DNA from: a virus
Strand: one strand, 5' to 3'
IMG/VR virus record: IMGVR_UViG_3300033149_003459
Span: 7,985-71,984 of that record
Length of the DNA stretch: 64,000 nt
Position numbers and translations under genes: made by a program
Shown here: one piece after another, positions 1-39,732 of the stretch
How the letters are laid out: each line of letters opens with the position of its first letter
Position numbering within the stretch: position 1 is the stretch's first letter
The notes under the pieces: generated by a model
The model's database searches: none
Seen by the model: the letters and a program-made list of their open reading frames with translations, nothing else
What the model was told of the DNA's origin: nothing

Positions 1-2
1 GC

Positions 3-671
3 AGGGGACCGGAGCTGCTCGACAAGCCCATCGAGGAGTTGCTGCCGATCTCGTTCGTCGGCGCGGCCGCGGTGTCAGCCTATCGGTCATGGATCAGGAA
101 ACTCGACAGCCTGCCGATGGCCGAGGAGCAGAAGCGGGAGACGCTCCGCGACGGCCAGAACGCGGGCAAGATGCTCCTGGCCATCGAGGCGCGGATCGGG
201 GAGCTGCTGCCGCGAGGTGATCGTGCGGGATGGATTCGAACGGAAGGATCTACAAAGAAAGCAACACGACTGAACTTGCCCATTGACGGGAAGCGAGCTC
301 ATGTGGCGAGACAGATATTCAACAACCCCGACGCCGTGGCCGAGGTCATCGCCGAGGCCGAGGAGAACGGGGACATACCCACCAAGACGGCCGTGCTGAA
401 CAAGGTGAGGGATCGGAGGAGGCGGGAACGGGCTCATGCCTATGCGAAGGATCGGGTTGAGGCTCCACCAGAGTTGTCGCGCTTCCTTGACGCATGCATC
501 ACGCGGCAACGGCAGACCAACATCGTGCTGAGCGACATCGTGCGGAACAAGGAGTACCTGCCTGAGAGCAAGCTTGAGGAGTTCGTTGGGGAGGTCGTCT
601 CCACCCTGCGGATACTGTCCACCGATAGATCGCTTAGGAGGATCATGCATGTTGACAGAGAGACAACTTGA
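3..671 (+). CDS. Hypothetical phage protein, 5'-truncated by the window edge
   Basis: Frame open to the window start; the LLAIEARIGELL segment resembles the helical N-terminal domain often fused to phage methyltransferases. Confidence 0.6.
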   Translation, partial: RGPELLDKPIEELLPISFVGAAAVSAYRSWIRKLDSLPMAEEQKRETLRDGQNAGKMLLAIEARIGELLPRGDRAGWIRTEGSTKKATRLNLPIDGKRAHVARQIFNNPDAVAEVIAEAEENGDIPTKTAVLNKVRDRRRRERAHAYAKDRVEAPPELSRFLDACITRQRQTNIVLSDIVRNKEYLPESKLEEFVGEVVSTLRILSTDRSLRRIMHVDRETT

Positions 672-1098
672 GCGGGTGCGCCAGCAGCTTCGATGTTCCG
701 TCGTTGAGGACGTGTTCTTTGACGGCAGGTACCCGAAGATGCAACTCCTATCGAAGGAGGACATCTATCGGGAGCTCGGCATCCCGTATGCTGACGGCGA
801 CTATTTCCAGATACGCGGGATTGACAGTGTCCTTGGTAGGGTACTGGCTGATCTTCGGAAACACCTTCACTTGCGCAACCTAAACTTCGTATCCATTAGG
901 GTGTCGCTGGAGGACGGGCATTCCTACGTTCTGTACGGGTTCACGAATGACGTCAACAAAATAGACGAATGCATATTGAGGTGGAAGAGGTTCTACTATT
1001 GTGGAAGGAGGAACGCCGAAAGGGTTGAACATGCCGGAGAGAAACAAAAGCGTCTTCTTCTCGCAGGGCAGGGGAAACTCCTCGGTTCGCAGCGATGA
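649..1098 (+). CDS. Hypothetical protein
   Basis: ATG at 649 after AGGAGG; lower-GC ORF with no recognised motif. Confidence 0.6.
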   Translation: MLTERQLERVRQQLRCSVVEDVFFDGRYPKMQLLSKEDIYRELGIPYADGDYFQIRGIDSVLGRVLADLRKHLHLRNLNFVSIRVSLEDGHSYVLYGFTNDVNKIDECILRWKRFYYCGRRNAERVEHAGEKQKRLLLAGQGKLLGSQR

Positions 1099-1195
1099 AT
1101 ATAGGGGGCGCTATTTGACGGTTTACGCTGGGCGGCATCTACAGGCGGGTGCCTTGATGGGCGCCTGTACAAAATCATTCTGAGGAGGCCAGGAG

Positions 1196-1810
1196 ATGGC
1201 TACGATCACGGTTCCGATGCTGAACGTTCAGGTCTGCAAGCTGCGCATCCGGGGCACCACACCCCTGATAGTGCACAGGTTCACCAAGAAGGCGCAGCAG
1301 CAGATCATCGACAAGCAGGGCGGCAAGGCCGCCAACAAGAAGGCGGCGAAGATAGCCGAGAAGGAGTTCGAGGACGCCAAGTACAAGCTGCCGGACGGGC
1401 GCGACGGGTTCCCGGCGGTGGCGTTCAAGACGGCCGCCGTGAGCGCGTGCCGCTACGTGGACGGGCTGAAGATGACGCACGTGCGCGGCGCGATGCACGT
1501 GATGGGCGAGGTGGTCGACGGCGTGCCGACCAACCTCGTGGCGCTCGACTGCGACGAGCCGGAGCTGCGCTCCGACCCGGTCACCATCAGCCTGGGGAAG
1601 AGGGACATCCGGCACCGGCCGCAGTACAACCGGTGGCAGACCACGCTGACCATCCATTACAACGCGAACGTCATCACGGTCGAGCAGATCGTGAACCTTT
1701 TCAACAACGCTGGTTTCGGCATCGGGGTCGGCGAGTGGCGGCCGTCGAGCCAAGGATCGTCACAGTTCGGCATGTTCGAGGTGGTCGGCTCTGACGAGGT
1801 TGCGTCGTGA
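1196..1810 (+). CDS. RAMP/Cas7-like protein, candidate effector of a GGY-NN repeat-guided (VIPR-like) system
   Basis: 204 aa, RBS AGGAG. N-terminal strand LRIRGTTPLIVH, the FPAVAFKTAAVSA helix (equivalent to RAMP IPGSSLKGA) and the C-terminal glycine-rich loop AGFGIGVGEWRP...FGMFEV are RAMP-like hallmarks; no other cas effector genes or CRISPR array present. Confidence 0.75.
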   Translation: MATITVPMLNVQVCKLRIRGTTPLIVHRFTKKAQQQIIDKQGGKAANKKAAKIAEKEFEDAKYKLPDGRDGFPAVAFKTAAVSACRYVDGLKMTHVRGAMHVMGEVVDGVPTNLVALDCDEPELRSDPVTISLGKRDIRHRPQYNRWQTTLTIHYNANVITVEQIVNLFNNAGFGIGVGEWRPSSQGSSQFGMFEVVGSDEVAS

Positions 1811-2340
1811 GCGCGGCGAGGGGTGAGAGGCCGACGTGGCGCGCCGGGTCGCGTTTCAGCGCGGACCCGGCCATGGTCGCGAGGGAGCTCAGGGTGCTTC
1901 ACCGGTTCACGTCCGTCCGCGACCAGGTGCGCCACCTCCGGGAGCACGAGGGGGAGTTCCCGACCCTGTGGGGGATACTCCCCACCGACGCGGACTCCGC
2001 GCTCTACGAGCTGCAGGTGGCGACGCTGCACCAGGTGTACACGTCGCTCGACCTTGAGGTCGACGTCACGGGCGGGGACGCTGGCAGCAGGACTATAACG
2101 GTTCGGGCGTTCCCGAGCAACCCGGACGGCCGGGGCTACGTGGAGATATCGCGCATCACGGAGGCCGACGACCGCAGGGGCTACATCGACAGCATCGAGC
2201 GCCGCATCAACGGCCTGCGCAGGGAGCTGTCCGACACGCAGGACTACTTCGAGCGGCGCGGGTACGAGTTCCCCGAGCGGTACGGCGCGCTGCGGCGCGA
2301 CCTTGAGCAGGCGCTGGTCTCGTGGGAGGGCGGCGCGTGA
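1807..2340 (+). CDS. Conserved-type phage protein coupled to the RAMP-like gene
   Basis: GTGA start/stop overlap with 1196..1810; ends 3 nt before the pentamer array; motifs WRAGSRFSADPAMVARELR and VRAF...GYVEI. Confidence 0.7.
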   Translation: MSAARGERPTWRAGSRFSADPAMVARELRVLHRFTSVRDQVRHLREHEGEFPTLWGILPTDADSALYELQVATLHQVYTSLDLEVDVTGGDAGSRTITVRAFPSNPDGRGYVEISRITEADDRRGYIDSIERRINGLRRELSDTQDYFERRGYEFPERYGALRRDLEQALVSWEGGA

Positions 2341-2343
2341 TGT

Positions 2344-2696
2344 GGCAGGCGGGGCGCGGTCAGGTAGGGTAAGGTACGGTGTGGCGCGGCGCGGCGCGGC
2401 TGGGCAGGCAAGGCTGGGTTCGGCGTGGCAAGGCGCGGCAGGGCAGGGCAAGGCGCGGCAGGCGCGGTTTGGCAGGCACGGCGAGGCATGGCAAGGCCGG
2501 GCGTGGCAAGGCAAGGCATGGCAGGCAGGGCGCGGAATGGTTAGGCTGGGCGTGGTTAGGCTGGGCGTGGCATGGCCCGGCAGGCGAGGTTTGGCTGGGC
2601 GTAGTTAGGCATGGTTCGGCAAGGCAAGGCATGGCAGGCAAGGCAAGGCGGGTCGGGGCGAAGCTTGGTTAGGCACGGCTTGGCATGGCTGGGTTT
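2344..2696 (+). repeat. Array of 65 GGY-NN pentamers punctuated by 7 GGCA tetramers; putative guide-RNA array
   Basis: Parsed by hand in register; 61 of 65 pentamers begin GGC or GGT with a variable dinucleotide; GGCA at 2344, 2403, 2457, 2471, 2520, 2579 and 2633; fills the intergenic space. Confidence 0.92.
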
Positions 2697-2703
2697 GTGA
2701 GGT

Positions 2704-3273
2704 GTGCAGGTGGGTGATCTGATACGGTGGTCCGAGATACACAGGCAGATAGTAGAGGCGCGCGACTTCGACACGATAGGGGCCATGCGCGGGAAGCTGG
2801 AGGTGCTCGACGTTGTCGCCAGGCAGCGGCACGAGAGCCTGCAGGTCCGCAACCGCATAGACCGCTACCACATAGAGCTGGCGTGGCGGGCGGCCGAGCT
2901 GTACAAGCAGCTCCCGGAGAGCCGCGGGCGCAGGAGGGCCGGGGATGGCGGGTCCACCTCGAAGCAGGACGCGCTCGACGGGCTCGGCGTGGCGAAGACG
3001 ACGATGTCCCGCTGGGTCGAGACGCTCGACATACCGTTCAAGCGGCGGAAGCTCGACACCTACGAGGCCCGGTGCGACGACGAGGACCGCCCGCTGACGT
3101 TCCAGGGGTTCCGCAAGTTCGCGCTCGACGGCGACGAGCGGCTGCGCGGCGTCAAGCGGCGCGTCACCATCATCATGCGCGGTGGGGAGCCGGTGGAGGT
3201 GCGGAACTGTCCGTCCTCCATCGAGATCGAGGTGTACGACGAGGACTTCGACGAGCGGAGGCTGCTCACGTGA
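2704..3273 (+). CDS. Hypothetical phage protein with HTH-like segment
   Basis: HIELAWRAAELYKQLP...LDGLGVAKTTMSRW; same general family as 3..671. Confidence 0.6.
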   Translation: MQVGDLIRWSEIHRQIVEARDFDTIGAMRGKLEVLDVVARQRHESLQVRNRIDRYHIELAWRAAELYKQLPESRGRRRAGDGGSTSKQDALDGLGVAKTTMSRWVETLDIPFKRRKLDTYEARCDDEDRPLTFQGFRKFALDGDERLRGVKRRVTIIMRGGEPVEVRNCPSSIEIEVYDEDFDERRLLT

Positions 3274-4403
3274 CCGGCATCGAGAAGTTCATGGCCGCCA
3301 TAAACGAGCGGTTCGGGGAGAACACGATACTGCGCGCGTCCGACCTCCCGACGCTCGGGCGCGTGTCCACCGGGTCGGTCGTCCTCGACTGGGGCATAGG
3401 CGGCGGCATAGCCATCGGCCGCATCACGGAGCTGTACGGCTACGAGTCGGTCGGCAAGACGCTCGTCGCGCTGAGGATAGTGCGCAACTTCCAGGAGGCG
3501 TTCCCCGAGCGCTCCGTGGCGTGGGTCGACACGGAGCAGTCGTGGGACGAGGAGTGGGTGCGCCGCGTGGGGGTGGACCCGGCCCGCGTCTGGATAGCGA
3601 AGCCGGACACGCTGAACCAGGCGTTCGACATAATGGACGTGTTCGCACGCACCGGCGACGTGTCGCTCGTGGTGCTGGACTCCCTCGGGGCGTCCGCCCC
3701 GCAGGAGGAGCTCGACGTGTCCATGGTCGACAAGAAGGCCGCCGGGCTCAAGGCGCGGACCGGGAACTGGGGCATGCGCAAGCTGCAGTCGGCGCTGAAC
3801 TACTCCCGTAGGATGGGCCATGAGTCGACCATCCTCGTGATAAACCACACCTACATGGGCCTGTCGGGGTTCCGCCCGACGAAGGAGACGCCCGGCGGCA
3901 AGGGCAAGGACTACGCGGACGCGCTGAAGGTGGAGCTGTTCGTCCGCAAGGAGCTGCGGTACCCGAAGGAGATCGACCCGAACGAGGACCAGTACGGCCA
4001 GCGCGTAGGGTTCTATGTCAAGAAGTCCAAGGTCGGCATCCCGCACAGGCGCGGGGAGTTCGAGGTGTTCATCCAGCCGTACCACGGCTACGACGTCGGG
4101 GACTTCTCACTGCTTGAGTACGTGCCGTTCCTCGTGAACGCTGGCATCCTGTCGAGGACCGGTGCGTGGTACACGCTGCCCGACGGCGGGCGCGTGCAGG
4201 GGGCGCAGGCCGTGGCTGACTGGCTTCGCGGGCTCGACAGTGTCGAGCTTGACACGATGAGGAGGGAGTGCCTTGAACGAGTTGCCGAGCTGGATGTACC
4301 GGACGAGCAAGGAGATGAGCCGGAGGCAGGAGACGCGGCTGGCGAGGGAGCTGGGCGGGACGGTGCAGCGGGGGTCGGGGAACCAGCCGACGAGACCGGG
4401 TGA
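3270..4403 (+). CDS. recA: RecA/UvsX-like recombinase
   Basis: STGSVVLDWGIGGG, GRITELYG, Walker A GYESVGKT, VDTE, Walker B LVVLDS, TPGG; GTG start overlapping the upstream stop. Confidence 0.93.
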   Translation: MTGIEKFMAAINERFGENTILRASDLPTLGRVSTGSVVLDWGIGGGIAIGRITELYGYESVGKTLVALRIVRNFQEAFPERSVAWVDTEQSWDEEWVRRVGVDPARVWIAKPDTLNQAFDIMDVFARTGDVSLVVLDSLGASAPQEELDVSMVDKKAAGLKARTGNWGMRKLQSALNYSRRMGHESTILVINHTYMGLSGFRPTKETPGGKGKDYADALKVELFVRKELRYPKEIDPNEDQYGQRVGFYVKKSKVGIPHRRGEFEVFIQPYHGYDVGDFSLLEYVPFLVNAGILSRTGAWYTLPDGGRVQGAQAVADWLRGLDSVELDTMRRECLERVAELDVPDEQGDEPEAGDAAGEGAGRDGAAGVGEPADETG

Positions 4404-4596
4404 TGTCCTGCTCGACGACTTCCTCGTCGAGGCTAAGATAACGAGGGCGTCGCAGTACACGCTGAGGGCCGCGTCGGTCGAGAAGATCGACAGGGAGGCG
4501 GCGAGCCAGAACCGTGACTGGGTCCTGGTCATAGAGATGGCCGGGCGGCGGCTCGCCGTGGTGTCGTACGACACGTTCAGGGAGGTGGTATGCTGA
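4294..4596 (+). CDS. Holliday-junction-resolvase-like PD-(D/E)xK nuclease
   Basis: QETRLARELGG...GSG...GDV...LVEAK. Confidence 0.75.
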   Translation: MYRTSKEMSRRQETRLARELGGTVQRGSGNQPTRPGDVLLDDFLVEAKITRASQYTLRAASVEKIDREAASQNRDWVLVIEMAGRRLAVVSYDTFREVVC

Positions 4597-5429
4597 AAGA
4601 CGTCATCAGGAACATCCGCTCCCAGGAGGGGGCGCTTGTTGACGAGCTCGACCACTGGCTGATGACCGGGTGCCAGGAGGAGCCGGACGCTGAGACCGTG
4701 GCGCGGCGCGCGCGGTACCTGCACCCCTCCGCGATGGGGAGGTGCTCCAGGGCCGTGGTGTACGAGAAGATCGGGGTGTCGTCCGGGCGCTCGGTGAGCG
4801 CGCAGCTGCAGCGGGTGTTCGACAACGGGCACTCGTTCCACCGGCGCATGCAGCGGTACTACGGCGCGATGGGCGTCCTGCACGGGACGTGGGCCTGCGA
4901 CGCCTGCGGCAAGCGGTGCCGCGTCCACGGCGCGCAGCCGGGGTGCCCTGAGCGTGCCGCACCGGCATGGGAGTACCTTGAGCCCAGGTTCAGGGACGAG
5001 GAAGAGCGCATATCCGGCCGGTGCGACGGCATCGTGTTCCACGGGGGCCGGAGGCTCGTGCTTGAGTTCAAGTCGATAAACAACAGGGGGTTCGTCTCGC
5101 TCTCCGGTCCGAGGCACGACCACATGGCCCAGGGGCAGCTGTACGCCCACGAGTTCCGAGCCGACGGGGTGGTGTACCAGTACGAGAACAAGGACACGCA
5201 GGCGATACGCGAGTACGTGATGCCGCGGGACGACATGCAGATACTGCTCCTGCTGGAGAAGGCCCGCGACATATGGAAGTGCATACTGACCGCCACGCTC
5301 CCGGCCCGCGTGTGTCCGTCGGTCGCTGACGCATACCGGTGCGACTACAAGGACGTGTGCTTCAACGAGTTCTTCGATCCAGCACCGTATTTTGAATCGT
5401 GGAGGGAACGATATGGCGCAGAGCTATGA
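4590..5429 (+). CDS. Cas4-like/RecB-family PD-(D/E)xK exonuclease
   Basis: HPSAMGRC, FDNGHSFH, GRCDG, LEFKS, QGQLY and a C-terminal Cys cluster. Confidence 0.85.
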   Translation: MLKDVIRNIRSQEGALVDELDHWLMTGCQEEPDAETVARRARYLHPSAMGRCSRAVVYEKIGVSSGRSVSAQLQRVFDNGHSFHRRMQRYYGAMGVLHGTWACDACGKRCRVHGAQPGCPERAAPAWEYLEPRFRDEEERISGRCDGIVFHGGRRLVLEFKSINNRGFVSLSGPRHDHMAQGQLYAHEFRADGVVYQYENKDTQAIREYVMPRDDMQILLLLEKARDIWKCILTATLPARVCPSVADAYRCDYKDVCFNEFFDPAPYFESWRERYGAEL

Positions 5430-5928
5430 CGAGAAGGTGACCGAGTACAAGGCCACGCGCGAGGGCATGGCGGCCGCACTGAGGAACGACCTGCCGACGC
5501 CGCGCAGGCTGGAGCAGCAGGAGATAGACTTCGCCAACGGGTTCATGTCGCAGAACGTGGCGACGCTCTCCGACGAGGTGCTCATGCGGTACTTCCACCT
5601 GTTCGTGGGGCTGCACGACTACGCCGGATGGGAGCTCGCCGCGTCGTCGGCCGACCTGGAGGCCGCGACGGAGGTGTACAACTTCACCGTCGCCACGGTG
5701 AAGCTCCAGGCTCCCGACGGCATGAAGCCGAGCCAGGCCGACGCCTGGGTGAAGACCCGGATGGAGATCCAGCGGCTGAACCAGGAGCGGCTGAACCAGC
5801 GGGCGCGGCACGAGCTGCTGAAGGCCCTGACGAAGGGCTACGAGGAGAAGTCCAAGCTCTGCAGCCGGGAGATGACCCGTCGCCTGAGCGCGGCGAACAT
5901 AAACTCCACGAAGCTGGGCGTCACGTGA
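5413..5928 (+). CDS. UvsY-like recombination mediator (tentative)
   Basis: Helical protein ending SREMTRR, within the RecA/nuclease module. Confidence 0.5.
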   Translation: MAQSYDEKVTEYKATREGMAAALRNDLPTPRRLEQQEIDFANGFMSQNVATLSDEVLMRYFHLFVGLHDYAGWELAASSADLEAATEVYNFTVATVKLQAPDGMKPSQADAWVKTRMEIQRLNQERLNQRARHELLKALTKGYEEKSKLCSREMTRRLSAANINSTKLGVT

Positions 5929-6605
5929 TCCCGGCGGTGTTCTCGTACGGCATGCCGAAGACCGGCACCACGCTCATGCTCAAGGCGTTCATGCGGTGCC
6001 GCGGGGTATACTACTGCCGCATCCGCGAGGGGTACTCGATACACCCGATGAACAGCGAGACGGGACTGTGCGACGTCGTGCGGTGGAACGGGGGCCACCC
6101 CATCGTGCTCGTGCGGACCTACCGGCACCCCGTCGACGTGATGGAGGCGCTGTTCAGGATTCACGCGGACTGGGGCGACGCTGAGCTCCGCAGGTTCGTC
6201 GGCTTCTACCGCGCGGAGTTCGAGAACACGGCGCGGTGCGTGCGCAGGATACTGCGCGGGGAGTGCAACAGCCCGCAGTACCCCACGCGGGTGGTGTTCG
6301 CCGAGATAGAGTTCGGGGGCATCGGCAGGGGGCCGATCCTGGAGGAGTTCCTGGCGCGGCTCGCGGGGCCGCTCAGCCCCATGGCGGTCGACGCCGTGCG
6401 GGGGTACCTGACAGGGACATGGGGCCGCAGGCCGTCGCGCGACGGCAGGCTGAGGCGGATCATCGAGGGGCGGCCGGTGCCCAATATCCTCAGCGACCGG
6501 CAGATCGACTACGTCGTCACGGAGCTGTCCGACGTGATAGCCGCCATGCGGTTGCGGTATAGCAACCGCCTCGACGGGTGGGAGGACGAGTATGGGAGAC
6601 GATAG
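5925..6605 (+). CDS. Sulfotransferase-like protein
   Basis: PAPS-binding loop YGMPKTGTT and 3'-PB-like RHPVDV. Confidence 0.7.
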   Translation: MIPAVFSYGMPKTGTTLMLKAFMRCRGVYYCRIREGYSIHPMNSETGLCDVVRWNGGHPIVLVRTYRHPVDVMEALFRIHADWGDAELRRFVGFYRAEFENTARCVRRILRGECNSPQYPTRVVFAEIEFGGIGRGPILEEFLARLAGPLSPMAVDAVRGYLTGTWGRRPSRDGRLRRIIEGRPVPNILSDRQIDYVVTELSDVIAAMRLRYSNRLDGWEDEYGRR

Positions 6606-7509
6606 GTGGAAGGGCTTCGAGCGCAAGGTGGCGGCCAGGTTCCGGGGACGGCGCGTGGTGCGGCCGGACTGGGGGAAGCCGGACCTCGACGTGGTGGCCG
6701 AGCCGTTCGGCATCGAGTGCAAGTACCGCAAGAGCTTCTCCTACGAGCGGGCACTTGCCGAGGCCGAGCATATTGTGGATACTGTTCCTGAGCGGTCCGG
6801 CCTGCTGCCGCTGGCGGTGTGCCAGCACCCGGGCGAGCGCGGGCGCGAGATGGTGGCCTTCCGCCTCGGCATGCTCGGCAGCGTGCTCGGCGTGGCGTTC
6901 GCGTCCAAGGCGTTCGACGAGGTGGCCGTGATGCCGCTGAAGTATTTCATGGCGTCAGGGAAGGCGATCAGGATCAGGTGCGAGGGGACGGAGGCGCTCC
7001 CGCTTGACGACCTCTGCGACCTACAGGGGACGCTGAAGGTGCTGACCGACGAGAACGCGGCGAAGCTGCGCGAGAGCATCCTGCGGTTCGGTTTCTCGTT
7101 TCCGGTGTTCGTGTGGGGCAGGGCCAAGCGTTACATCGTGGACGGGCACCAACGCGTCGAGGTCCTGAAGCGCCTGCGCGACGAGGGGTACGAGGTGCCG
7201 GACATACCGGTGGTCCCGATCCATGCTTCGTCGAAGGCCGAGGCGAGGAAGAAGCTCCTGACCGCCGTATCGCAATACGGCGACGTGTCGGTCACCGGGC
7301 TCGCCGACATGCTTGACGACATGGACGCCGCCAACATGGACCTGTCGTCCGTGGTGGCCATGCCGGGCATCGACCTGTCGGGGTTCTTCGAGTCCCTTGA
7401 GTCGGACGGCATCCCGGTCACTGATGGCGTTGCGCCGGTGGCCGAGGACACCGACATCGACACGCTCGCCACCAGCATGGAGTGCCCGAAGTGCGGGTAC
7501 CGGTGGTGA
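6592..7509 (+). CDS. Resolvase-like nuclease fused to a ParB/Srx-like domain
   Basis: N-terminal KGFERKVA...PDLD...IECK; C-terminal KLRESILRFGFSFPVFVW...IVDGHQR; terminal CPKCG. Confidence 0.7.
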   Translation: MGDDRWKGFERKVAARFRGRRVVRPDWGKPDLDVVAEPFGIECKYRKSFSYERALAEAEHIVDTVPERSGLLPLAVCQHPGERGREMVAFRLGMLGSVLGVAFASKAFDEVAVMPLKYFMASGKAIRIRCEGTEALPLDDLCDLQGTLKVLTDENAAKLRESILRFGFSFPVFVWGRAKRYIVDGHQRVEVLKRLRDEGYEVPDIPVVPIHASSKAEARKKLLTAVSQYGDVSVTGLADMLDDMDAANMDLSSVVAMPGIDLSGFFESLESDGIPVTDGVAPVAEDTDIDTLATSMECPKCGYRW

Positions 7510-7910
7510 GCACGGACCGTGACGCTCCGGTGGGAAGGAAGAGGTCGTACACGATGTCGCGGATACGCAGCAGCGGCACTCGGCCGGAGCTCATGGTCGA
7601 GTGGTTCCTGCACACCGTCGGCGCGTCGTTCGAGTGGCAGCCACGAATCCACGGTCGGCCGGACTTCCTCGTCGAGGGGCGGGTTGCCGTGTTCGTCGAC
7701 GGGTGCTTCTGGCATGGCTGCCCGGAGCACTACAGGGAGCCTAAGACGCGCGCGAGTTTCTGGCGGGCCAAGATATCAAGGAACAGGGGGCGCCGTGAGG
7801 AGGTGCTTCCGGTCCTGCGCCGCTCCGGGTACACTGTCATAAGCATATGGGAGCACGCCGTCAATGACGGATCGTACAAGGGCGAGCTTTGGCTGGCGAT
7901 GCCCCGGTAG
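7506..7910 (+). CDS. vsr: Very-short-patch repair endonuclease
   Basis: RSYTMSRIRSSGTRPE, PDF, FVDGCFWHGC, FWRAKISRN. Confidence 0.92.
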   Translation: MSTDRDAPVGRKRSYTMSRIRSSGTRPELMVEWFLHTVGASFEWQPRIHGRPDFLVEGRVAVFVDGCFWHGCPEHYREPKTRASFWRAKISRNRGRREEVLPVLRRSGYTVISIWEHAVNDGSYKGELWLAMPR

Positions 7911-7925
7911 ACCCATTAGACACAT

Positions 7926-8945
7926 ATGCAGTATGGAGATAGGATGCTGAGCAGGGTTCCGACTGTTATCTCAACGTTTGCCGGATGCGGTGGGTCATCG
8001 CTCGGTTACAGGTGGGCAGGTTTCAATGAGCTGCTCGCAGTGGACTTCAACGCCAACGTGGAGCGGTCGTTCAACGCCAACTTCCCAGACGTCCCGTTCT
8101 GGCGGCGCGATATCACCGAGGTCACGGCCGGGGAGGTCCTGTCCTTCTGCGGAATCGGGAAGGGTGACCTCGACGTTCTTGACGGGTCGCCACCGTGCCA
8201 GGGATTCTCGATAGCCGGAAAGCGCAACATACAGGACCCGAGGAACAGCCTGTTCGGCGACTTCGTGCGGCTTGTATCCGGGCTGCGCCCGAAGGTGTTC
8301 GTCATGGAGAACGTTCCGGGCATGGCTATAGGGACATACCGCGGTGTCTTCAACGAGGTGTTGACGGTCCTGCGGTCCACCGGCTACTCGGTGCTGTGCA
8401 GGCTGATGAACGCGGCGAACCATGGCGTCCCGCAGAGCAGGCGGCGTCTCATCTTCATAGGGGTGCGGCCTGACCTCGGAGTGCCACCGGTGTTCCCAGA
8501 CCCGCTCGGCGGCGTCATGACATCCGGCGACGCCATCGACGGGGTGGACAGCTCCGACGAGGAGCTTGCGTGGGCCAGGTGGCTGGCTGATGACCATGAC
8601 TGCGCGTCATCGAAAATTGTCAAGAGAGCATTTCTACTGATGAGACCCGGCGAGAATGGATCAAGATATTTTGATGGTAAATATTTTAACTATGTCAAAC
8701 TGCATCCTGACAGGCCGTCGCCGACCATACTGACGATGCCGACAGGGTACAGAAACCGTTACTTCCATTGGAGTGACGCGCGCAATATAACCGTGTCGGA
8801 ATGCAGGCGGCTCTGCTCGTTCCCGGATTCGTTCAGGCTGTCCGGCAGGCTCCATGAGCAGTGGACGCAGCTCGGCAACTCCGTGATGCCGCGCTTCATG
8901 GAGGCCGTGGCCGGGACCGTCAAGAGGGACATACTGGGGGTATGA
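7926..8945 (+). CDS. DNA cytosine-C5 methyltransferase
   Basis: FAGCGG (motif I), GSPPCQGFS (IV), ENV (VI), QSRRR (VIII), QLGNSV (X). Confidence 0.95.
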   Translation: MQYGDRMLSRVPTVISTFAGCGGSSLGYRWAGFNELLAVDFNANVERSFNANFPDVPFWRRDITEVTAGEVLSFCGIGKGDLDVLDGSPPCQGFSIAGKRNIQDPRNSLFGDFVRLVSGLRPKVFVMENVPGMAIGTYRGVFNEVLTVLRSTGYSVLCRLMNAANHGVPQSRRRLIFIGVRPDLGVPPVFPDPLGGVMTSGDAIDGVDSSDEELAWARWLADDHDCASSKIVKRAFLLMRPGENGSRYFDGKYFNYVKLHPDRPSPTILTMPTGYRNRYFHWSDARNITVSECRRLCSFPDSFRLSGRLHEQWTQLGNSVMPRFMEAVAGTVKRDILGV

Positions 8946-10006: not shown

Positions 10007-10523
10007 GGAGCTCTCCAGGCAGTACTGCAACTACGTCAAGATCGGCATGACCGAGAAGGACGCGGCCGTGCTGTGCGGGGTGGACATCACCACCGTGATG
10101 CAGTGGAAGCGCAAGGGCCGCGCGGCGTACGACGACGACACCGTGGAGTTCGGCGAGAGCACGAACATGTACGTCGACTTCTTCCTTGAGGTCGACAAGG
10201 CCAAGCGCTTCGCCAAGCAGCTGTGCCTGCAGACGATAGTGCAGGCGCTGCCGAGCGACCCGAAGCTGTGCCTGACGTGGCTCGGGCGGAAGTACCCGGA
10301 TGAGTGGGGCCGCAAGGACTGGCCCCGGATGCAGCAGAACACGCTCGTGCTGCAGGAGACGGGGCTCATCGGGAAGGATGGGAGAATTGACGTCGACGGA
10401 ATCCGCGAGAGCATTGCTCGCGCACGGCGAACCTTCACTATCGACGATATTGGAGCTCAGGAGCGACTTGTGCCTGGAGATGGAGCGGCTGCTGACAATC
10501 CAGGAGCAGGCACGGCTTCCTGA
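9969..10523 (+). CDS. Terminase small subunit
   Basis: N-terminal HTH (GMTEKDAAVLCGVDITTVMQW), WLGRKYPDEWGRKD; directly upstream of TerL. Confidence 0.75.
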   Translation: MAMPGGRKTILNEELSRQYCNYVKIGMTEKDAAVLCGVDITTVMQWKRKGRAAYDDDTVEFGESTNMYVDFFLEVDKAKRFAKQLCLQTIVQALPSDPKLCLTWLGRKYPDEWGRKDWPRMQQNTLVLQETGLIGKDGRIDVDGIRESIARARRTFTIDDIGAQERLVPGDGAAADNPGAGTAS

Positions 10524-13041
10524 CGTCCAGGCGGACGCCGAGTACACGGAGGCGCTTGAACTCACCATAGTGGAGCTCGCGCAGTGCCTCGATGCCATCC
10601 AGGGCTCCGTCGAGCTGTACGACAGCACCCTCCGCTACGCCGAGGACCCGGTCCGGTTCATCAACAACGAGTGCTCCCTGTTCAACCCGGACAAGGAACC
10701 GGCCATAATGCCGTTCCACCTGTACGACTACCAGGCCGAGTTCATCGAGAGGCTGCACATTGCCTACAGGAACGACGAGTCGCTGCTCACCGAGAAGACC
10801 CGGCAGATGGGGATGTCGTGGCTCTACATGGCGTTCTTCCTGTGGGCGCTCCTCTACGACCCGGACTTCTCGGGCATCGTGCTGAGCTACAACATCCGGC
10901 TGGTCGACGACGGCGGGTCGGAGAGCAGCATCAACTCCCTGCTCGGCAAGCTGCGCTTCATGTACGACCTCCTGCGCGCGCCGCTGCGCGGGGTCCTCGC
11001 CGTGAAGTACCTGAACGTGCGCAACCTGCGCACGAGCGCCTACCTCGTCGGCGAGACGGCGCACCCGAACGCGGGGCGCGGCGGGTCGTACAAGATAGGG
11101 CTGTGGGACGAGACCGCGCTGTCGGTTAAGAGCGAGGAGGTGTTCAGCGCCTTCTACCAGGCCACGCGGTGCAGGTGCTACAACTCGACTCCGCGCGGCA
11201 AGGGCAACGTCTTCGCCCGCCTGCGGTTCGCGGCGGAGTCCACGGTGAACGTCGTGACGCTGCACTGGACGCTGCACCCGGAGAAGGGCGCGGGCGCGGT
11301 GCAGAACAAGGACGGCAGGTGGACGTCACCGTGGTACGAGCACGAGTGCCGGGACATGACCCCTGCGCAGATCGCGCAGGAGCTCGACATCGACTACGAG
11401 ACGTCGGTCGAGGGCAGGGTGTACGAGAAGTTCAGGAGCACGGTGCACGTGCTGAAGGAGGCCCCGGAGTTCCGGCCGGAGTTCGAGACCATCATAGCGT
11501 GGGACCTCGGCGTGGCCGACGACACGTTCGGGGTGGTGTTCCAGCGGGACCCGCAGGGGTCGCTCCTCGTGTTCGACGAGGTGGTCGGGACGGACGAGGA
11601 CATAAGGTTCTACATAGACCTCGTGTGCGGGGTGCGCCCGTCCGAGCTCGACTATGTGTTCGACAAGAAGCTGGAGGCGTACGAGCGGTTCCTCGGCAAC
11701 GCGCAGGAGCACGACTACGCGGGGTTCGTCCAGGTGGCCGGGCCGGACGCGGGCCAGCGCAGCATAAACAGCAAGACCTCCGTCCGCCAGCAGTTCACGA
11801 CGGCCGGGCAGATCGGCCGCGCCAGCGGCAGCTCAGACAGGCGGTACAGGGACATGCGGATGGTCGCCATGAGCGGGTACAAGATCCTCGACCGGATAGT
11901 CGCCACCAGGAAGGTGATGGACCCGGCGAGGCAGCGGTTCTACGTGTCCCCGGTGTGCGTGCACACCATAGAGCACCTGTCGAACTACGCATGGACGAAG
12001 ACGTCGGAGGGCATGAACAGGGAGGTGCCGGATCACAACTGGGCCTGCCTGCGCGGTGATGTCAGGGTGCGGACGCTCAACGGATGGGTTCCGATATCGG
12101 AGGTGTCCGCTGGGGACTTCGTGTGGGGGTACTCAGAAAAGGAGCGCCGCCTGGTTCCGGCTGAGGTCGGCAATGCCGGAAGGACGGGCGTCAATGCAAG
12201 GCTCCTTGAGGTCGGCATAGACAGCGGCCGGTCGCTGTTCTGCACGCCGGAGCACCGGCTCATGCTGAGGGACGGCTCGTACCGGCGCGCCGATGAGCTG
12301 GCCGTCGGTGACGGTCTGATGCCGTTCTACGAGAGACTGAACAGGAGCTACATCCGCGTTGACCTCAACGACGGGACGTTCGCCGATGAGCACAGGTTCG
12401 TGTACAGCCGGTTCAACGGTTCGCTTGGGGAGACCGGTCTCCACGTCGACCATATCAACCACAACAGGTTCGACAACAGGCCTGAGAACCTGCAGCTGCT
12501 GTCTGTGGATGACCACTGTCAGAAGACGTTCCGGGGGAAGAGCGCCGAGGAGAGGAGGCTGGTGGACGCCACACCTGAGCGTGATTTCTACAACTCACGG
12601 TCCGGCTACTTCAAGTGGTGCAAGAACTGCGGGGAGGAGTTCTTCGGGACGCACAAGCGGGCTTACTGCTCTCCGCGCTACCGTGATGAGTACAGGAAGA
12701 TGCGCGATAGGGCGCAACTCATTCCGAGCCGGTCCGACGAGGCCAGGCTTGAGAAGAACAGGAAGGCGGGGGAGAAATACCGCAGGAACGGGAAGAACCA
12801 CAAGGTCAGGTTCATACGCTCCGCGGCCTCCGCCGACGTGTACGACCTGTCCGTACCTGAGCTCGGAAACTTCGTCGCCGAGGGTGTGGTGGTCCACAAC
12901 TCGCACGGGGCTGACGCCGTCGGGTACGGCGTGCTGTACTTCTCAAGGAGGCGCGAGGTGAGGATGAAGCCGGACCTGCACGGGGACCGCGTGCGCCGGA
13001 CGACCCGGAACCTCGGCACGCCGATGAGGGTTGGAAGGTGA
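10378..13041 (+). CDS. Terminase large subunit containing an intein
   Basis: Q motif (LYDYQ), EKTRQMGMSW, WDE, STPRG, AWDLG, and the nuclease motif HNWA/SHGADA split by the intein; start may instead be 10480. Confidence 0.93.
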   Translation: MGELTSTESARALLAHGEPSLSTILELRSDLCLEMERLLTIQEQARLPDVQADAEYTEALELTIVELAQCLDAIQGSVELYDSTLRYAEDPVRFINNECSLFNPDKEPAIMPFHLYDYQAEFIERLHIAYRNDESLLTEKTRQMGMSWLYMAFFLWALLYDPDFSGIVLSYNIRLVDDGGSESSINSLLGKLRFMYDLLRAPLRGVLAVKYLNVRNLRTSAYLVGETAHPNAGRGGSYKIGLWDETALSVKSEEVFSAFYQATRCRCYNSTPRGKGNVFARLRFAAESTVNVVTLHWTLHPEKGAGAVQNKDGRWTSPWYEHECRDMTPAQIAQELDIDYETSVEGRVYEKFRSTVHVLKEAPEFRPEFETIIAWDLGVADDTFGVVFQRDPQGSLLVFDEVVGTDEDIRFYIDLVCGVRPSELDYVFDKKLEAYERFLGNAQEHDYAGFVQVAGPDAGQRSINSKTSVRQQFTTAGQIGRASGSSDRRYRDMRMVAMSGYKILDRIVATRKVMDPARQRFYVSPVCVHTIEHLSNYAWTKTSEGMNREVPDHNWACLRGDVRVRTLNGWVPISEVSAGDFVWGYSEKERRLVPAEVGNAGRTGVNARLLEVGIDSGRSLFCTPEHRLMLRDGSYRRADELAVGDGLMPFYERLNRSYIRVDLNDGTFADEHRFVYSRFNGSLGETGLHVDHINHNRFDNRPENLQLLSVDDHCQKTFRGKSAEERRLVDATPERDFYNSRSGYFKWCKNCGEEFFGTHKRAYCSPRYRDEYRKMRDRAQLIPSRSDEARLEKNRKAGEKYRRNGKNHKVRFIRSAASADVYDLSVPELGNFVAEGVVVHNSHGADAVGYGVLYFSRRREVRMKPDLHGDRVRRTTRNLGTPMRVGR
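12046..12900 (+). mobile_element. Intein with HNH homing endonuclease in TerL (285 aa)
   Basis: Starts CLRGDVRVRT; block B CTPEHRL; HVDHINHNRFDNRPENL; block F VYDLSV; ends VVHN before Ser. Confidence 0.93.
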
Positions 13042-20427: not shown

Positions 20428-21294
20428 GTGGCGGTCGTGAGGCCGCTGCTGCTGGTCACCCGCGCCAACCCGCCGGACGACGAGCTGGTCGCGTTCGTGG
20501 ACGGGTGCGTGTCCAGCGACCGGAAGGTCGTCATCGGCGTGGTGGAGTCCCAGGTGTCCGAGGAGACGCCGCTCGCGTGGTCCGTCGTTGTGAAGATGCT
20601 GCGGAAATGGTACACAGGCTACTCGGATACAGTGAGCGTCGTCCCGCTGCCGGACGTCGGGGCGGTGTCCGTCATGGACGGGGGCGGGCGCATAGTGGCC
20701 CCGGTGCCGTCCAGGCCGCCGCACGGCATCGCCAGCTCGTTCTGCTTCCAGTGCTTCGAGGAGCAGGCCGGGTTCGTGGTGTGGCTGACGGGGCTGCCGT
20801 CCTCCGGCAAGTCGACGATAGCCTCGCGGCTGTGGGGTTGGTTCAACCAGAATGGGATAACCACGCAGGTCCTCGACGGGGACACCCTCCGGGCCGGGGC
20901 GCACAGCTCGCTCGGGTTCAGCCGGGCCGGTCGCATTGAGAACATCAGGCGGGCCGGAAGGATCGCGCGCACGCTGCAGGCGTACCACGTCGGGGTCATA
21001 GCCGCGTTCATCACGCCGTACCGCGGGATGCGGGCTTCGCTGAGGCGCATGCTTGGCGACAACTACGTCGAGGTCTACGTCAGGGCGTCGCGCGATGAGT
21101 GCATCCGGCGCGACGTGAAGGGCCTGTGGGGGCGCGCGCTGCGCGGGGAGATAGAGAACTTCACGGGCGTCGGCGACAGGTACGAGGCTCCCCTGCACCC
21201 CGACCTCACGGTGGACACGGAGGTCCTTTCACACGTGAACTGCGTGAACCTCATCGTCGACCACCTGAAGATGAGGGGGGTGATACCGAAATGA
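20428..21294 (+). CDS. cysC: Adenylyl-sulfate (APS) kinase with an N-terminal extra domain
   Basis: VWLTGLPSSGKST, LDGD, LGFSRAGRIENIRR, RRDVKGL, NFTGV..YEAP; start uncertain (frame open to about 20365). Confidence 0.92.
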   Translation: MAVVRPLLLVTRANPPDDELVAFVDGCVSSDRKVVIGVVESQVSEETPLAWSVVVKMLRKWYTGYSDTVSVVPLPDVGAVSVMDGGGRIVAPVPSRPPHGIASSFCFQCFEEQAGFVVWLTGLPSSGKSTIASRLWGWFNQNGITTQVLDGDTLRAGAHSSLGFSRAGRIENIRRAGRIARTLQAYHVGVIAAFITPYRGMRASLRRMLGDNYVEVYVRASRDECIRRDVKGLWGRALRGEIENFTGVGDRYEAPLHPDLTVDTEVLSHVNCVNLIVDHLKMRGVIPK

Positions 21295-22181
21295 GGATAA
21301 GCGTCTACCATCGCGGGAGCGCCCATTTCCTGACGCCGCTGCTGGACCATTGGGAGGCGAACGGCTGGACCGTGGACAGGGAGCTGGGAGGGGCCGACGT
21401 CATCTGGGTCGAATGGGCCAACGAGCAGTCCGTCAGGGCGCTCTCCGATGCGCGGCGCAGGAACGTCGTGGTGCGCATGCTCGGCTCCGAGTACTGGCAG
21501 GAGTTCTGGAGGAAATGGGACCTGTCGAAGCTGCACACGGTCGTGCAGTCGAGCGGCGTCACGGTGATACCTGGCGTCCGGTGGGAGTGCATCCCGCCGG
21601 GCATCGACGCCAACTTCTGGATGTCCAACTACGACGGGGACAGGGACAACCGCCTGATAGTGGTCGGCAGCTTCACCTACACGAAGAACCACGTCGGGCT
21701 GCTGCGCGTCCTGGCGGACCGCCCGCTCGCGTTCGACGAGGTGATGTTCGTGGGGCCGCTCGACCGCGACGGGAGGCCAGGCCCGAGGATCGAGGCGAGG
21801 AAGATCGTGGACCTGTGCCGCCGGTACGCGGACCGCTACGGGATCAACCTCGTGATCCACGACAGGATGAGCAGGGAGTCGCTGCGCGACCTGTACTGCC
21901 GCTCGGCGCTGATGGTGTGCCCGGCCATAAACAGCTTCTCGGCGGTGGTGGGCGAGGCGATGGCCTGCGAGTGCAAGGTGCTGGTGGCCGACTGGCCGGG
22001 CTCCTGGGTGCACTGGCCCGAGCGGATCATATACTCCACCGAGCGCGAGTTCTGGAGCAAGTGGGACAACTACCCCATGCGGCAGTACGACCTGCGCAGA
22101 TGGGTGGTGGACAGGTTCCACACGGACGTGGTCTTCGAGAGGATAGACCGCGTCATCCGGGAGGCGGCGAGGGTGGTGTGA
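21291..22181 (+). CDS. GT-B (GT4-like) glycosyltransferase
   Basis: ADVIWVEWANE, IPPGID, KNH, SFSAVVGEAMACEC. Confidence 0.78.
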   Translation: MRISVYHRGSAHFLTPLLDHWEANGWTVDRELGGADVIWVEWANEQSVRALSDARRRNVVVRMLGSEYWQEFWRKWDLSKLHTVVQSSGVTVIPGVRWECIPPGIDANFWMSNYDGDRDNRLIVVGSFTYTKNHVGLLRVLADRPLAFDEVMFVGPLDRDGRPGPRIEARKIVDLCRRYADRYGINLVIHDRMSRESLRDLYCRSALMVCPAINSFSAVVGEAMACECKVLVADWPGSWVHWPERIIYSTEREFWSKWDNYPMRQYDLRRWVVDRFHTDVVFERIDRVIREAARVV

Positions 22182-22384
22182 CGCGGGTGTTGCGCCTGTC
22201 GCCGCATGGGGGTATGCTGAGCCATGAAGGAATGCCAGGTATGCAGGAAGTCGCTGACGAGCAGGGACCACTCGCTGCGCGTGACCGTGCAGCGGGACGT
22301 GTTCTTCGAGATGCACTTCTGGCTGTGCGAGAAGCACTACGAGGAGCTCCGGCAGTGGGCCGAGGGGAAGACGGTGCTGCACAG

Positions 22385-22639
22385 ATGAGCGGCGACGCCC
22401 CGTACCTGGCCGACGACGTGAAGCAGGACGTGCTCGACGCGCTCGCGCTGGTGCGGAAGGAGTTCTCCAAGCTCGGGGCCATCGCGGGGTTCTGCTGCGT
22501 GGCGGTGGGCAACCCGGACAGCGACGGGAGCGTGACGTTCAGCATGAGCTGGGACCGCGACGGCGACAACGCGCGCGTCATCAGCCTCGCGAGCCAGGGG
22601 GTCCGGCTGCTGAAGAACGGGGGGCGCTCTGGACCGTGA
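22385..22639 (+). CDS. Hypothetical protein
   Basis: Short ORF with genome-typical codon usage. Confidence 0.45.
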   Translation: MSGDAPYLADDVKQDVLDALALVRKEFSKLGAIAGFCCVAVGNPDSDGSVTFSMSWDRDGDNARVISLASQGVRLLKNGGRSGP

Positions 22640-22871
22640 AGGTCGTCTTTCGAGGGAGGACCGGCAGGCCGCAGCCACGGGTCGCGGACGTCGTCCGGCG
22701 CGGCCCGCAGCGCGCACGGTCCGGCGGCATCAGGACCACCGGCGTGGTGCGCAGGTGCGAGGTATGCGACGAGACGCGCCCGTGCGACCTGCGGCACGAC
22801 CCGTGGCAGGAGGCGGCGTACGGGAGGCGCGTCCTGAAGTGGTACTGCCGGGAGTGCTACGAGGCCGTGCG

Positions 22872-23222
22872 GTGACCGGGTGCTACGACTGCGGTCTCGA
22901 CTACGGCACCGATGGCTGGGTAGACGCCGTGGTGCCGGACGAGTTCTGGCTGGCTATCAGCCCCACGGGGCACGGAGGGGGCATCCTGTGCATCGACTGC
23001 ATGGCCCGCAGGCTGGCAAACCTGCGGCTGCGCGGCGTCCCGGTCCGGCTGGAGTCGGGGCCGTTCAGGCACGGCACGGATTGCCCCTCCCTGTGGCGCA
23101 GGCTGTTCTGGCGGATCACCAACCATCTGTTCATGCGGCAGCGCCTACGCAGGAGGCACCTGGACGTGGACTTCTACACAGACTGGGACGACGGGCACGG
23201 GAGGACGGCCATGAGAAAGTGA
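22872..23222 (+). CDS. Hypothetical Cys-motif protein
   Basis: CYDCG...VPDEFW...GGILCIDCMARRL. Confidence 0.55.
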   Translation: MTGCYDCGLDYGTDGWVDAVVPDEFWLAISPTGHGGGILCIDCMARRLANLRLRGVPVRLESGPFRHGTDCPSLWRRLFWRITNHLFMRQRLRRRHLDVDFYTDWDDGHGRTAMRK

Positions 23223-23240
23223 CCACGTAAGGGGGAGACC

Positions 23241-23426
23241 ATGGCCGTCATCAAGGACGCGAAGCGCCACCGGAAGGGCAAGTCCGGCACAAGCAAGTAC
23301 GGGCGCAACAAGGCGAAGTGCGAGCGCTACCGGGCTCGCGGCCAGCGGGAGCGGAACAAGGCGCGCAGGGCCGAGAGGCTGCGCAGGCACCTTGAGAGGT
23401 GCGCCGCCCGCAGGGCCGGTGGCTGA
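23241..23426 (+). CDS. Small very basic protein
   Basis: K/R-rich 61 aa, RBS GGGGAG. Confidence 0.55.
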   Translation: MAVIKDAKRHRKGKSGTSKYGRNKAKCERYRARGQRERNKARRAERLRRHLERCAARRAGG

Positions 23427-23433
23427 GGTTTAC

Positions 23434-23480
23434 CGCGAGCGCCTATTATAGTATATTATACATGATAATAGGCGCTTGCG
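23434..23480. promoter_or_regulatory. AT-cored palindrome, putative operator or promoter
   Basis: CGCGAGCGCCTATTAT-15 nt-ATAATAGGCGCTTGCG (15/16 complementary), upstream of an HTH gene. Confidence 0.55.
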
Positions 23481-23500
23481 CCGAAAAGGAGTACCCACAG

Positions 23501-23701
23501 ATGGAAAGGGAATGGACCATCAAGGAGATAGCGGACGAGCTCGGCATCACGCGGGACGCGGTCCTGAAGATCGCGCGCGGCAAGCTCGGGCTCGGCACTA
23601 AGGACGTCGGCATGTGGTGGTTCACCGCCGACGACGTCTCCAAGATCAAGGCCAACTGCCGGAAGTACCGGCTGGCCCAGCGCCGGCCCGCGAAGGTCTG
23701 A
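23501..23701 (+). CDS. Small HTH DNA-binding protein
   Basis: WTIKEIADELGITRDAV...WWFTADDV. Confidence 0.75.
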   Translation: MEREWTIKEIADELGITRDAVLKIARGKLGLGTKDVGMWWFTADDVSKIKANCRKYRLAQRRPAKV

Positions 23702-23712
23702 GGTCCTCCGGC

Positions 23713-24657
23713 ATGGGGGAACTGAAGGTCGGGCTGTTCGGCGTCGGCAGGATGGGGAGCAACCACCTGCGCGTGCTCAGCGGCATGGACGGGGTCGCCG
23801 TCAGGGCGTACGACCCGGGGGCGGCCTTCTGCCCGCGCGCGCCGTCGGCTGTGATGGTGCCCGGGGCGGGGGAGCTGATGAGGTGGGCCGACGCCGTGGT
23901 GGTGGCCACACCGATACCGGCTCACTACGGCATAGCGAAGAACGCGCTGCTGAATGGCAAGCCGGTCCTGTGCGAGAAGCCGGTGTGCGGTGACATAGAC
24001 CAGCTCCGGCACCTGATGGAGACGTCGAGGGCACGCAACGTCCTGCTGATGGGCGGCTACGTGGAGCGGTACAACCCGGCCGTCGGCGTGCTCTGCGACC
24101 GCGGACGTGCCAGCGTCGCCATGGTCGAGATGGAGCGCGTCGGGAACGTGCCGGAGGCCGACCGCGTGCCATGCGGCGTGGTGATGGACATAGCCGTGCA
24201 CGACTACGACCTGCTGTCGCGGGTGTTCCCCGGGTGCCGCATCCGCGTGGTGCACTCCTCGCTGCTGTTCGACGGCACCGTGGCGGTGCGGGCGGACGTG
24301 GTGCTCGGGATGCGCTGGGCCGGTAGGGACATACCGGTGCACGTGAGGACGAGCTGGGTCGGCCTGCGCAAGCGAAGGCTGATCGGCCTGCACTACCGGC
24401 AGTACACGTCCTTCGCCGACCTGGTCAACAGGCGGGTGTGGACCGTCAACAGGATGACGGGCAGGAGGCGGGTGCGCGACGTCAACGACGGCAGGACGCC
24501 CCTTGAGATAGAGCTGGACCGGTTCGTCGGGATGGTAAAGGACGGCTATCCGGGCGGTCCGGTCCACGTCGGCGAGGAGGCCGTGAGGATAGCGGAGGAG
24601 GCGTGCGGTGTCGGCGCGGCGGCACAGGGGCGGCGACCAGGACGCTGGTTCTGCTGA
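23713..24657 (+). CDS. Gfo/Idh/MocA oxidoreductase (WbpB-like)
   Basis: GVGRMG, ATP, CEKP, ERYNPA, DIAVHD. Confidence 0.9.
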   Translation: MGELKVGLFGVGRMGSNHLRVLSGMDGVAVRAYDPGAAFCPRAPSAVMVPGAGELMRWADAVVVATPIPAHYGIAKNALLNGKPVLCEKPVCGDIDQLRHLMETSRARNVLLMGGYVERYNPAVGVLCDRGRASVAMVEMERVGNVPEADRVPCGVVMDIAVHDYDLLSRVFPGCRIRVVHSSLLFDGTVAVRADVVLGMRWAGRDIPVHVRTSWVGLRKRRLIGLHYRQYTSFADLVNRRVWTVNRMTGRRRVRDVNDGRTPLEIELDRFVGMVKDGYPGGPVHVGEEAVRIAEEACGVGAAAQGRRPGRWFC

Positions 24658-24843
24658 CGTTATCCGTCCTCCTGGTGGCGCTGTCGCTGATCCTGTGACC
24701 GAGGACGGGCGGTCGCTGCTCCACAGCATCCTGCTGTTCCCGCCGGTCCTGCTGCTCACCATAGTCGGCATGCTGGTGATGGCGTGCAGGGGCGACCTCG
24801 TCTGCCTGTGGCGCGACATCATCGACCAGTACAGGAGCACGCG

Positions 24844-38916: not shown

Positions 38917-38935
38917 TCTCAATAGGGGGAAGCGC

Positions 38936-39703: not shown

Positions 39704-39732
39704 CACCGATACCAATCGAAGGATAAGCTATC

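Follow-up and report, generated by a model that had tools for sequence, protein, structure and literature searches.

VIPR (Viral Interference Programmable Repeat) systems are RNA-guided phage gene-silencing systems, first described in 2026 (bioRxiv 10.64898/2026.04.26.720920). As presented in the preprints on Escherichia phage SUSP1 and on a Pseudomonas prophage, the protein Vipr, a minimal RAMP with an RRM core, a G-loop, and a thumb, forms polymers along an RNA of 9-16 GGY-NN pentamers, in which the GGY bases are buried and the NN bases are presented; the NN pairs bind double-stranded DNA in the form NN-x, i.e., with one base skipped after each pair (10.64898/2026.04.26.720920, 10.64898/2026.04.26.720927). 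The skipped base is usually the wobble position of a codon, and the genes silenced are those of rival phages and satellites (10.64898/2026.04.26.720920). This code, a one-nucleotide skip placed at wobble positions, is reported as experimentally established (PMC13142463). The cut-off given for a target is 80% of the NN bases (10.64898/2026.04.26.720920), and targeting of the vipr gene has been reported for SUSP1 relatives (10.64898/2026.10.15.759431).

Seven VIPR types and several array forms have been distinguished. A 'staggered vrRNA array', according to the legend of fig. S18, is one with one-nucleotide overlaps, and the array forms that the text of the preprint gives as confirmed by sRNA-seq do not include it (bioRxiv 10.64898/2026.04.26.720920). 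VIPR with a staggered array was already known, and the gapped reading of VIPR guides had been published with experiments, months before the present analysis.

The backbone of class 1 CRISPR systems (Cas7/Csm3 on crRNA) has the same RAMP fold. By analogy, one protomer would cover a fixed number of guide bases in both systems, and a thumb would interrupt the duplex of guide and target at regular intervals. The differences lie in the guide, since the CRISPR backbone offers five read bases and one flipped base, while the guide considered here is gapped, with two bases read and three hidden, and in the genetic context, which here is a phage and comprises neither repeat-spacer units nor cas1/cas2 nor an adaptation module.

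Another protein that reads a regularly spaced RNA is TRAP, the trp attenuation protein of Bacillus, which binds GAG/UAG triplets spaced by 2-3 nt. The likeness is that of a protein oligomer reading an RNA of about 11 units, in which one invariant triplet recurs at 5-nt intervals; in TRAP, however, the spacers are devoid of information and there is no second nucleic acid as a target, and the proteins are unrelated. A TRAP-like ring protein reading RNA triplets was the first working idea for the present locus, and was dropped on the Vipr match.

The window, i.e., the whole stretch of 64,000 nucleotides analysed here (positions 7,985 to 71,984 of IMG/VR record IMGVR_UViG_3300033149_003459), contains a repeat tract that, with a probability of about 0.9, provides the guide-RNA array for a VIPR system of the staggered type carried by the phage. 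This identification is made because of the homology and fold of the neighbouring Vipr, its residues opposite the GGY contacts, the repeat grammar, the co-occurrence of array and vipr in relatives, the junctions between blocks, a check of the code within the clade, and the lack of self-targets.

The repeat tract and its parsing

The tract occupies a 363-base gap (window 2341-2703) between two + strand genes of a tailed-phage genome. Positions 2348-2696 resolve into 65 GGY-NN pentamers with 130 NN bases, arranged on the + strand in seven blocks: block 1 (2348-2402, 11 units), block 2 (2407-2456, 10 units), block 3 (2461-2470, 2 units), block 4 (2475-2519, 9 units), block 5 (2524-2578, 11 units), block 6 (2583-2632, 10 units), and block 7 (2637-2696, 12 units, two of which have degenerate scaffolds). 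The scaffold is GGC or GGT in 61 of the 65 units, the exceptions being GGA, AGT, GTC, and AGC, and the NN positions hold 15 different dinucleotides. For block 4, the reparse returned the very reading proposed in the original prediction (AC GA AT AA CG GT AA AA AT). The 71,984-base genome holds no second array of this kind, whichever strand is read.

A 4-nt step, in which GGC comes after GGCA, links each block to the next. This GGCAGGC junction occurs seven times, at 2344, 2403, 2457, 2471, 2520, 2579, and 2633, so that the array with its junctions spans 2344-2696 (+ strand). A 4-nt step between 5-nt units implies an overlap of one nucleotide and a slip of the register by one at each boundary, as in staggered arrays, and the junction would correspond to that overlap. 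The 9-12-unit blocks that these junctions delimit would be individual guides, six of them usable, while block 3 is probably a remnant, too short to serve as a guide given the published range of 9-16 units. The guide ends are thus putative, taken from the reading of the junctions and from one validated relative, with no structured 3' tail to mark them.

Like the staggered VIPRs, the locus has a RAMP gene for Vipr with a small gene beside it, pentamers of the form GGY-NN, and one base common to adjacent guides (seven times here), a likeness drawn from the legend text of fig. S18. With type II VIPR, represented by SUSP1 and the Pseudomonas fulva prophage, it shares a homologous Vipr, the GGY contacts, the one-nucleotide skip, and the lack of self-targeting, and its six blocks of 9-12 units lie within the 9-16 units per guide published for that type. 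The two differ at the guide ends: each SUSP1 vrRNA is described as closing with a structured tail that does not vary and contains a pseudoknot, whereas the present blocks are tailless and abut through the 4-nt junction, without an invariant spacer.

GenBank annotators have assumed for some actinophage tracts that such repeats are coding, which here would yield a Gly/Ala/Arg-rich repeat protein. Open reading frames of 97 and 101 aa do cross the tract, and homologous tracts are entered as 'hypothetical protein' in Mycobacterium phage Donkeykong (gp48) and Gordonia phage Pipp (gp43), but every frame is interrupted (5, 1, and 2 stops per frame) and the 4-nt junctions shift the frame from block to block. 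GC3 in the tract frames is 0.69-0.72, versus about 0.89 in the genes of the phage, and the periodicity is five rather than three, with an autocorrelation of 0.59 at lag 5 versus 0.21 at lag 3. Conservation of GGY with variability of NN is, moreover, explained by no codon frame. The tract is intergenic, and a coding role is extremely unlikely.

Searches for other features gave negative results. No stable RNA fold was found in the tract (z -1.06, with 18 of 100 shuffles folding as well), and the Rfam and tRNA scans of the window returned no match. A scan limited to the sigma-70 consensus revealed no promoter- or terminator-like site near the array. CRISPR array features are absent, as only 5-nt units are present, without cas1/cas2, and the sole Cas-like match is a Cas4-family exonuclease belonging to a recombination module.

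The vipr gene and its surroundings

The vipr gene (P0001) lies at window 1196-1810 on the + strand and encodes a 204-aa, Cas7-like RAMP, as judged from a PDB profile match and a predicted fold. A profile built from 33 homologues matches PDB entry 36pp_D, 'SUSP1 Vipr protein', with an E-value of 3.5e-9, and this is the sole solved structure matched; P0001 as a single sequence matches SUSP1 Vipr at E 1.3e-4. The AF2 model has a pLDDT of 89.4, and its best Foldseek matches are Csm3/Cas7 chains (E 1.6e-6, probability 1.0). As for family assignments, P0001 belongs to PHROG 4652 (function unknown) and has no Pfam family.

The sequence similarity between P0001 and SUSP1 Vipr is restricted to the C-terminal third (residues 128-184), in which the G-loop GVGEWRP of P0001 stands opposite GVGDWRP of SUSP1. 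The GGY contacts described for SUSP1 Vipr are R138, D177, W178, and R179 (10.64898/2026.04.26.720927); in the HMMER alignment, whose aligned part leaves out H17 and K33, these residues face R141, E180 (a D to E change), W181, and R182 of P0001. R141, R182, and P183 are invariant among the 33 homologues, and E180 and W181 nearly so. P0001 is, by sequence and predicted fold, a Vipr and, as such, the predicted vrRNA-binding filament subunit.

A side observation concerns the thumb region. At window 1370-1640 (residues about 60-150), an insertion of eight residues and a diverged motif, RSDPVTISLG versus REDMVRVGMG, set apart the Vipr of the window together with P0005, to which it is most closely related (67% identity). 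The site is the target of a type of guide found in a related locus and described below.

The array starts 534 nt past the vipr stop, on the same strand, with one small gene in between. This gene, P0002 (1807-2340, + strand), stands in the position of a vap (vipr-accessory) gene, and begins with a GTG that shares bases with the stop codon of vipr (GTGA, 1807-1810). Its match to PHROG 15946 is weak, with two colinear HMM segments (hhalign probability 46%, E 2e-4); a single real homologue, P0244 (44% identity), was found among 1.84 billion representatives, and no similarity to any named vap was detected. P0002 is equivalent in place to the accessory gene of the clade, and its homology to that gene is doubtful. 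Downstream of the array, P0003 is a 189-aa ORF (2704-3273, + strand) from the ORF list, without a Pfam or PHROG family, and none of the 164 related loci encodes a homologue. The next gene (3270-4403) is RecA/UvsX-like, as recognized by its RecA domain match, and P0003 is joined to it by the same GTGA start/stop overlap (3270-3273). These overlaps suggest that a single operon may run through the array.

A mechanism can be proposed on the model of the published work on SUSP1 and P. fulva. The array would be transcribed on the + strand, probably together with vipr (1196-1810) and the small gene at 1807-2340. Vipr protomers would then polymerise on the RNA, one per pentamer, holding GGY and presenting NN, and the resulting filament would form an R-loop, which would silence transcription in a competitor, be it a phage, a satellite, or a prophage.

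The genome record comprises 71,984 bases, and its recognisable genes, among which are terminase, portal, capsid, tail tube, and tape measure, all lie on one strand. Several other features were observed. Window 10300-13041 and 29567-32761 hold a large terminase gene that carries an intein with an HNH endonuclease (Intein_splicing, E 2.3e-18), as well as a minor head protein gene with a Hint-like segment and a DUF559/endonuclease insert. At window 7482-8945, a gene for a Vsr-type mismatch endonuclease stands directly 5' of one for a C-5 cytosine methyltransferase. Two blocks of sugar/sulfate metabolism genes lie amid the structural genes (window 20428-26133 and 35155-43955). They encode an APS kinase, glycosyltransferases, an oxidoreductase, a UDP-sugar dehydrogenase, a FabG-like reductase, an AMP-binding enzyme, and a hexapeptide transferase, and include a weak sulfotransferase match, below the cut-off of Pfam. 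Relatives of the UDP-sugar dehydrogenase were considered for host inference, and none exceeded 37% identity among the 120 matches listed.

Relatives, the gapped code, and target searches

When window 1-6000 was compared by distant blastn with 50,697 phage records, the repeat tract alone was matched, at about 70% identity in 30 records (26 Mycobacterium, 3 Gordonia, and 1 cyanophage). A tblastn search with P0001 matched 33 records (27 Mycobacterium, 5 Gordonia, and 1 cyanophage), tallies nearly identical to those of the array. The tracts of Donkeykong, Pipp, Cy-LDV1, and Ecliptus show the same grammar, with GGCAGG[C/T] junctions, each beside a homologue of P0001. In viral_contigs, a scan with the single protein P0001 found no relative, and a scan with the Vipr profile did: relatives are encoded in 570 of the 596 matched stretches, of which the best 80 of the 570 were used, and in 80 of the 131 stretches matched in genome_contigs, all 80 of which were used. 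These 160 fetched loci, four GenBank loci, and the window make up the clade set of 165 sources.

In this set, the order vipr - small gene - array, found in the window, is the commonest (83 loci), and the small gene of the clade belongs to the PHROG 15946 family in all 19 members scanned. GGCAGGC is the commonest 4-nt step in the relatives (591 of 1,153), and the block length peaks at 9-11 units. Arrays lie on the vipr strand in 152 of the 165 sources and on the other strand in two, i.e., 10,133 versus 29 units.

These data bear on whether the tract could be a functionless pentanucleotide microsatellite, neutral or driven by slippage. Tandem Repeats Finder does report arrays of period 5, 10, 15, 20, and 49 in the tract, and blocks 4-6 are interrelated in the manner of duplicates (period 49, 76% matches). 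The grammar of fixed GGY, free NN, and GGCAGGC is, however, retained in phages of actinobacteria, of a cyanobacterium, and of many other phyla, at 30-70% GC, and the arrays keep to the same protein gene and to its strand, so that the probability of this explanation is close to negligible.

In GenBank, the actinophage vipr genes are hypothetical proteins, as are the arrays of Donkeykong (gp48, L001 3982-4368) and Pipp (gp43, L002 3995-4264), and some actinophage arrays are unannotated. In the Donkeykong locus, a C/A-rich leader follows the array (L001 4340-5081), and the vipr gene there, in contrast to the genes beside it, has almost no G or T as the third base of its codons.

The gapped code could be checked within the clade. 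All 620 unique guides of at least eight units were compared with all loci, arrays being masked, at skips of 0-3 and each along with a shuffled guide. A perfect best match was obtained for no guide at skip 0, two at skip 1, none at skip 2, and one at skip 3, the last of which looks like an unmasked array copy; the shuffled guides gave no perfect match at any skip (0/620). One of the two skip-1 guides belongs to L072 and matches L061. The other, in L033 (an IMG/VR contig, positions 3553-3654), consists of eight units between two GGCAGGC junctions and spells the conserved Vipr motif EDMVRVGM; no other skip gave a guide with perfect in-frame matches in many loci. It is perfect in 63 loci and has one mismatch in 29 more of the 165 sequences searched; all its matches are on the vipr sense strand, and they start in frame in the two examined by hand. 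The vipr gene of L033 itself agrees with its own guide at only 13 of 16 positions, having AGG for Arg, and Ile and Leu in place of Val and Met. Owner and target, thus, differ at three read positions, one of which is a synonymous Arg codon switch (CGN-to-AGG).

The L033 guide supports both the one-nucleotide skip and the junction-to-junction boundaries of guides in the clade. Its targeting of vipr is the behaviour reported in SUSP1 relatives (10.64898/2026.10.15.759431). The NN-x reading with one skipped base, insensitive to codon wobble, that the original prediction had advanced from the sequence is the published VIPR code, and through this guide it is seen at work in the clade. The Vipr of the window is strongly diverged at the EDMVRVGM site, where it reads SDPVTISL, and possibly represents an escape variant.

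A gene of rival phages spelled in frame by an NN tract is also not what would be predicted if the tract acted as DNA, whether as an array of iterons bound by a protein, as an origin of replication, or as an element prone to form G-quadruplexes next to recombination genes. Such a role would suit the richness in G of one strand (180 of the 363 bases of the gap), the GG runs every 5 nt, and the location immediately upstream of genes for a RecA-like protein, a resolvase, and a Cas4-like exonuclease. In the relatives, however, the array accompanies vipr, in the same orientation, and not replication genes: it lies between tail genes in Gordonia phage Ecliptus and beside the immunity region in Donkeykong. 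A role as DNA is, therefore, very unlikely, and the reading as a VIPR guide array is retained.

Targets were then sought for the six guides of the window. When both strands of the 71,984-base genome were scanned with contiguous, NN-x, NN-xx, and NN-xxx patterns, with 100 shuffles for each guide, no self-target rose above the shuffles, save for a trivial self-match at skip 3. The best own-genome matches at skip 1 cover 64-72% of the NN bases, below the 80% cut-off, and are unchanged when the junction unit is added; the impression, gained by eye from the sequence, that there is no convincing self-target, therefore, holds. Against the 164 related VIPR loci, neither the whole guides nor their eight-unit halves, 5' or 3', gave anything above 60 shuffles. 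The idea that the blocks encode gapped targets, detectable by pattern searches against shuffled controls, has, thus, been followed on the own genome, the 164 related loci, and the contig of locus L165 (see below): the code stands, while the six guides show no excess of matches in these sequences.

The scans of viral_contigs and metagenome_contigs were for exact NN-x matches, without a shuffled control. In viral_contigs, blocks 1, 2, 5, 6, and 7 had no such match. Block 4 had one, the sole exact match at a one-nucleotide skip found there, at L165 1014-1039 (- strand), which runs in the sense direction and in the reading frame of the peptide TEMNRVNNI. The ORF concerned shows weak DHH/DHHA1 similarity, below the cut-offs of Pfam, and the contig is viral, 26 kb long, with 58% GC; the other guides of the window have no match in it. 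For an 18-base pattern, about one chance match is expected by a rough estimate (the size of the collection is not given), which places the L165 match at about chance level, as a lead only. In metagenome_contigs, block 4 matches 75 loci. Among them, 23 share one identical 26-mer with stops nearby, seven fall in one family of open frames of about 1,000 aa with a hydrophobic, signal-like N-terminus, and three in another protein family, and other matches lie in unrelated open frames. None resembles the L165 ORF in translated context, compared by eye rather than by alignment, and the 75 matches are read as chance level.

Composition of the guide bases

The NN bases comprise 44 A, 17 C, 34 G, and 35 T. 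The recount confirms to the base the original figure of 79 A/T among 130 (60.8%), and the flanking genes are GC-rich as had been stated (67% GC, with 64.5% for the genome). Relative to the AT content of the genome (35.5%), this proportion is highly unexpected (binomial p = 6e-9). A wobble-skipping guide, however, omits the GC-rich third positions of codons, and an NN tract is, therefore, expected to be AT-rich beside its flanks. In the 35 confident ORFs of the window, the AT content is 47.2% at codon positions 1 and 2 and 11.3% at position 3; against the 47.2%, the 79 of 130 still deviate (p = 0.002). Wobble skipping, thus, accounts for part of the AT-richness.

What remains is confined to one of the two guide bases. 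In this window, the composition of N5 is that of codon position 2 (chi2 0.03, p 0.9985), whereas that of N4 departs from codon position 1 (chi2 22.8, p 4e-5), C being present there in only 3 of 65 units. The remaining AT excess lies wholly at this first N and arises from C depletion. Across the clade, the NN tracts have a mean AT content of 0.578 (151 loci), which goes from 0.65 in loci below 45% GC to 0.53 in those above 65%. AT-richness is a property of the system and no pointer to AT-rich targets. The proposal that the NN composition indicates targets in AT-rich DNA, such as promoters or a lower-GC competitor, consequently finds no support, as tracts are AT-rich throughout the clade whatever the GC content and the excess is at N4 only.

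The depletion of C varies with the scaffold. In the window and the related arrays, C occupies N4 in 8.8% of the units after GGC (4,300 units) and in 18.2% after GGT (1,774 units). The choice of pyrimidine in the scaffold could tentatively be regarded as coupled to the first guide base, a rule that would go beyond 'GGY fixed, NN free' and that we consider possible rather than probable. Searches by term in the available text of the three VIPR preprints gave no mention of a bias at N4. Avoidance of GGCC restriction sites was considered as a cause of the depletion and rejected, the observed/expected ratio of GGCC in the phage genome being 1.01.

VIPR having been described only in 2026, a correctly parsed natural locus is of some practical value, and the present one adds a 72-kb, high-GC phage to the group with staggered arrays. 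Arrays have gone unrecognised in the well-studied Cheoctovirus mycobacteriophages (the genus of Donkeykong) and in Gordonia phages, for which culturable hosts and large collections exist, so that targets and processing could be tested there. As for composition, the lesson is that a guide code that skips wobble bases, together with a scaffold constraint, has AT-richness as its signature. If the coupling is real, staggered-array VIPRs would not be free to read codons beginning with C (Leu, Pro, His, Gln, and Arg) unless the scaffold changes to GGT. This would bias the genes that can be targeted and would offer rivals an escape route, such as the CGN-to-AGG switch of an Arg codon seen in the vipr gene of L033.
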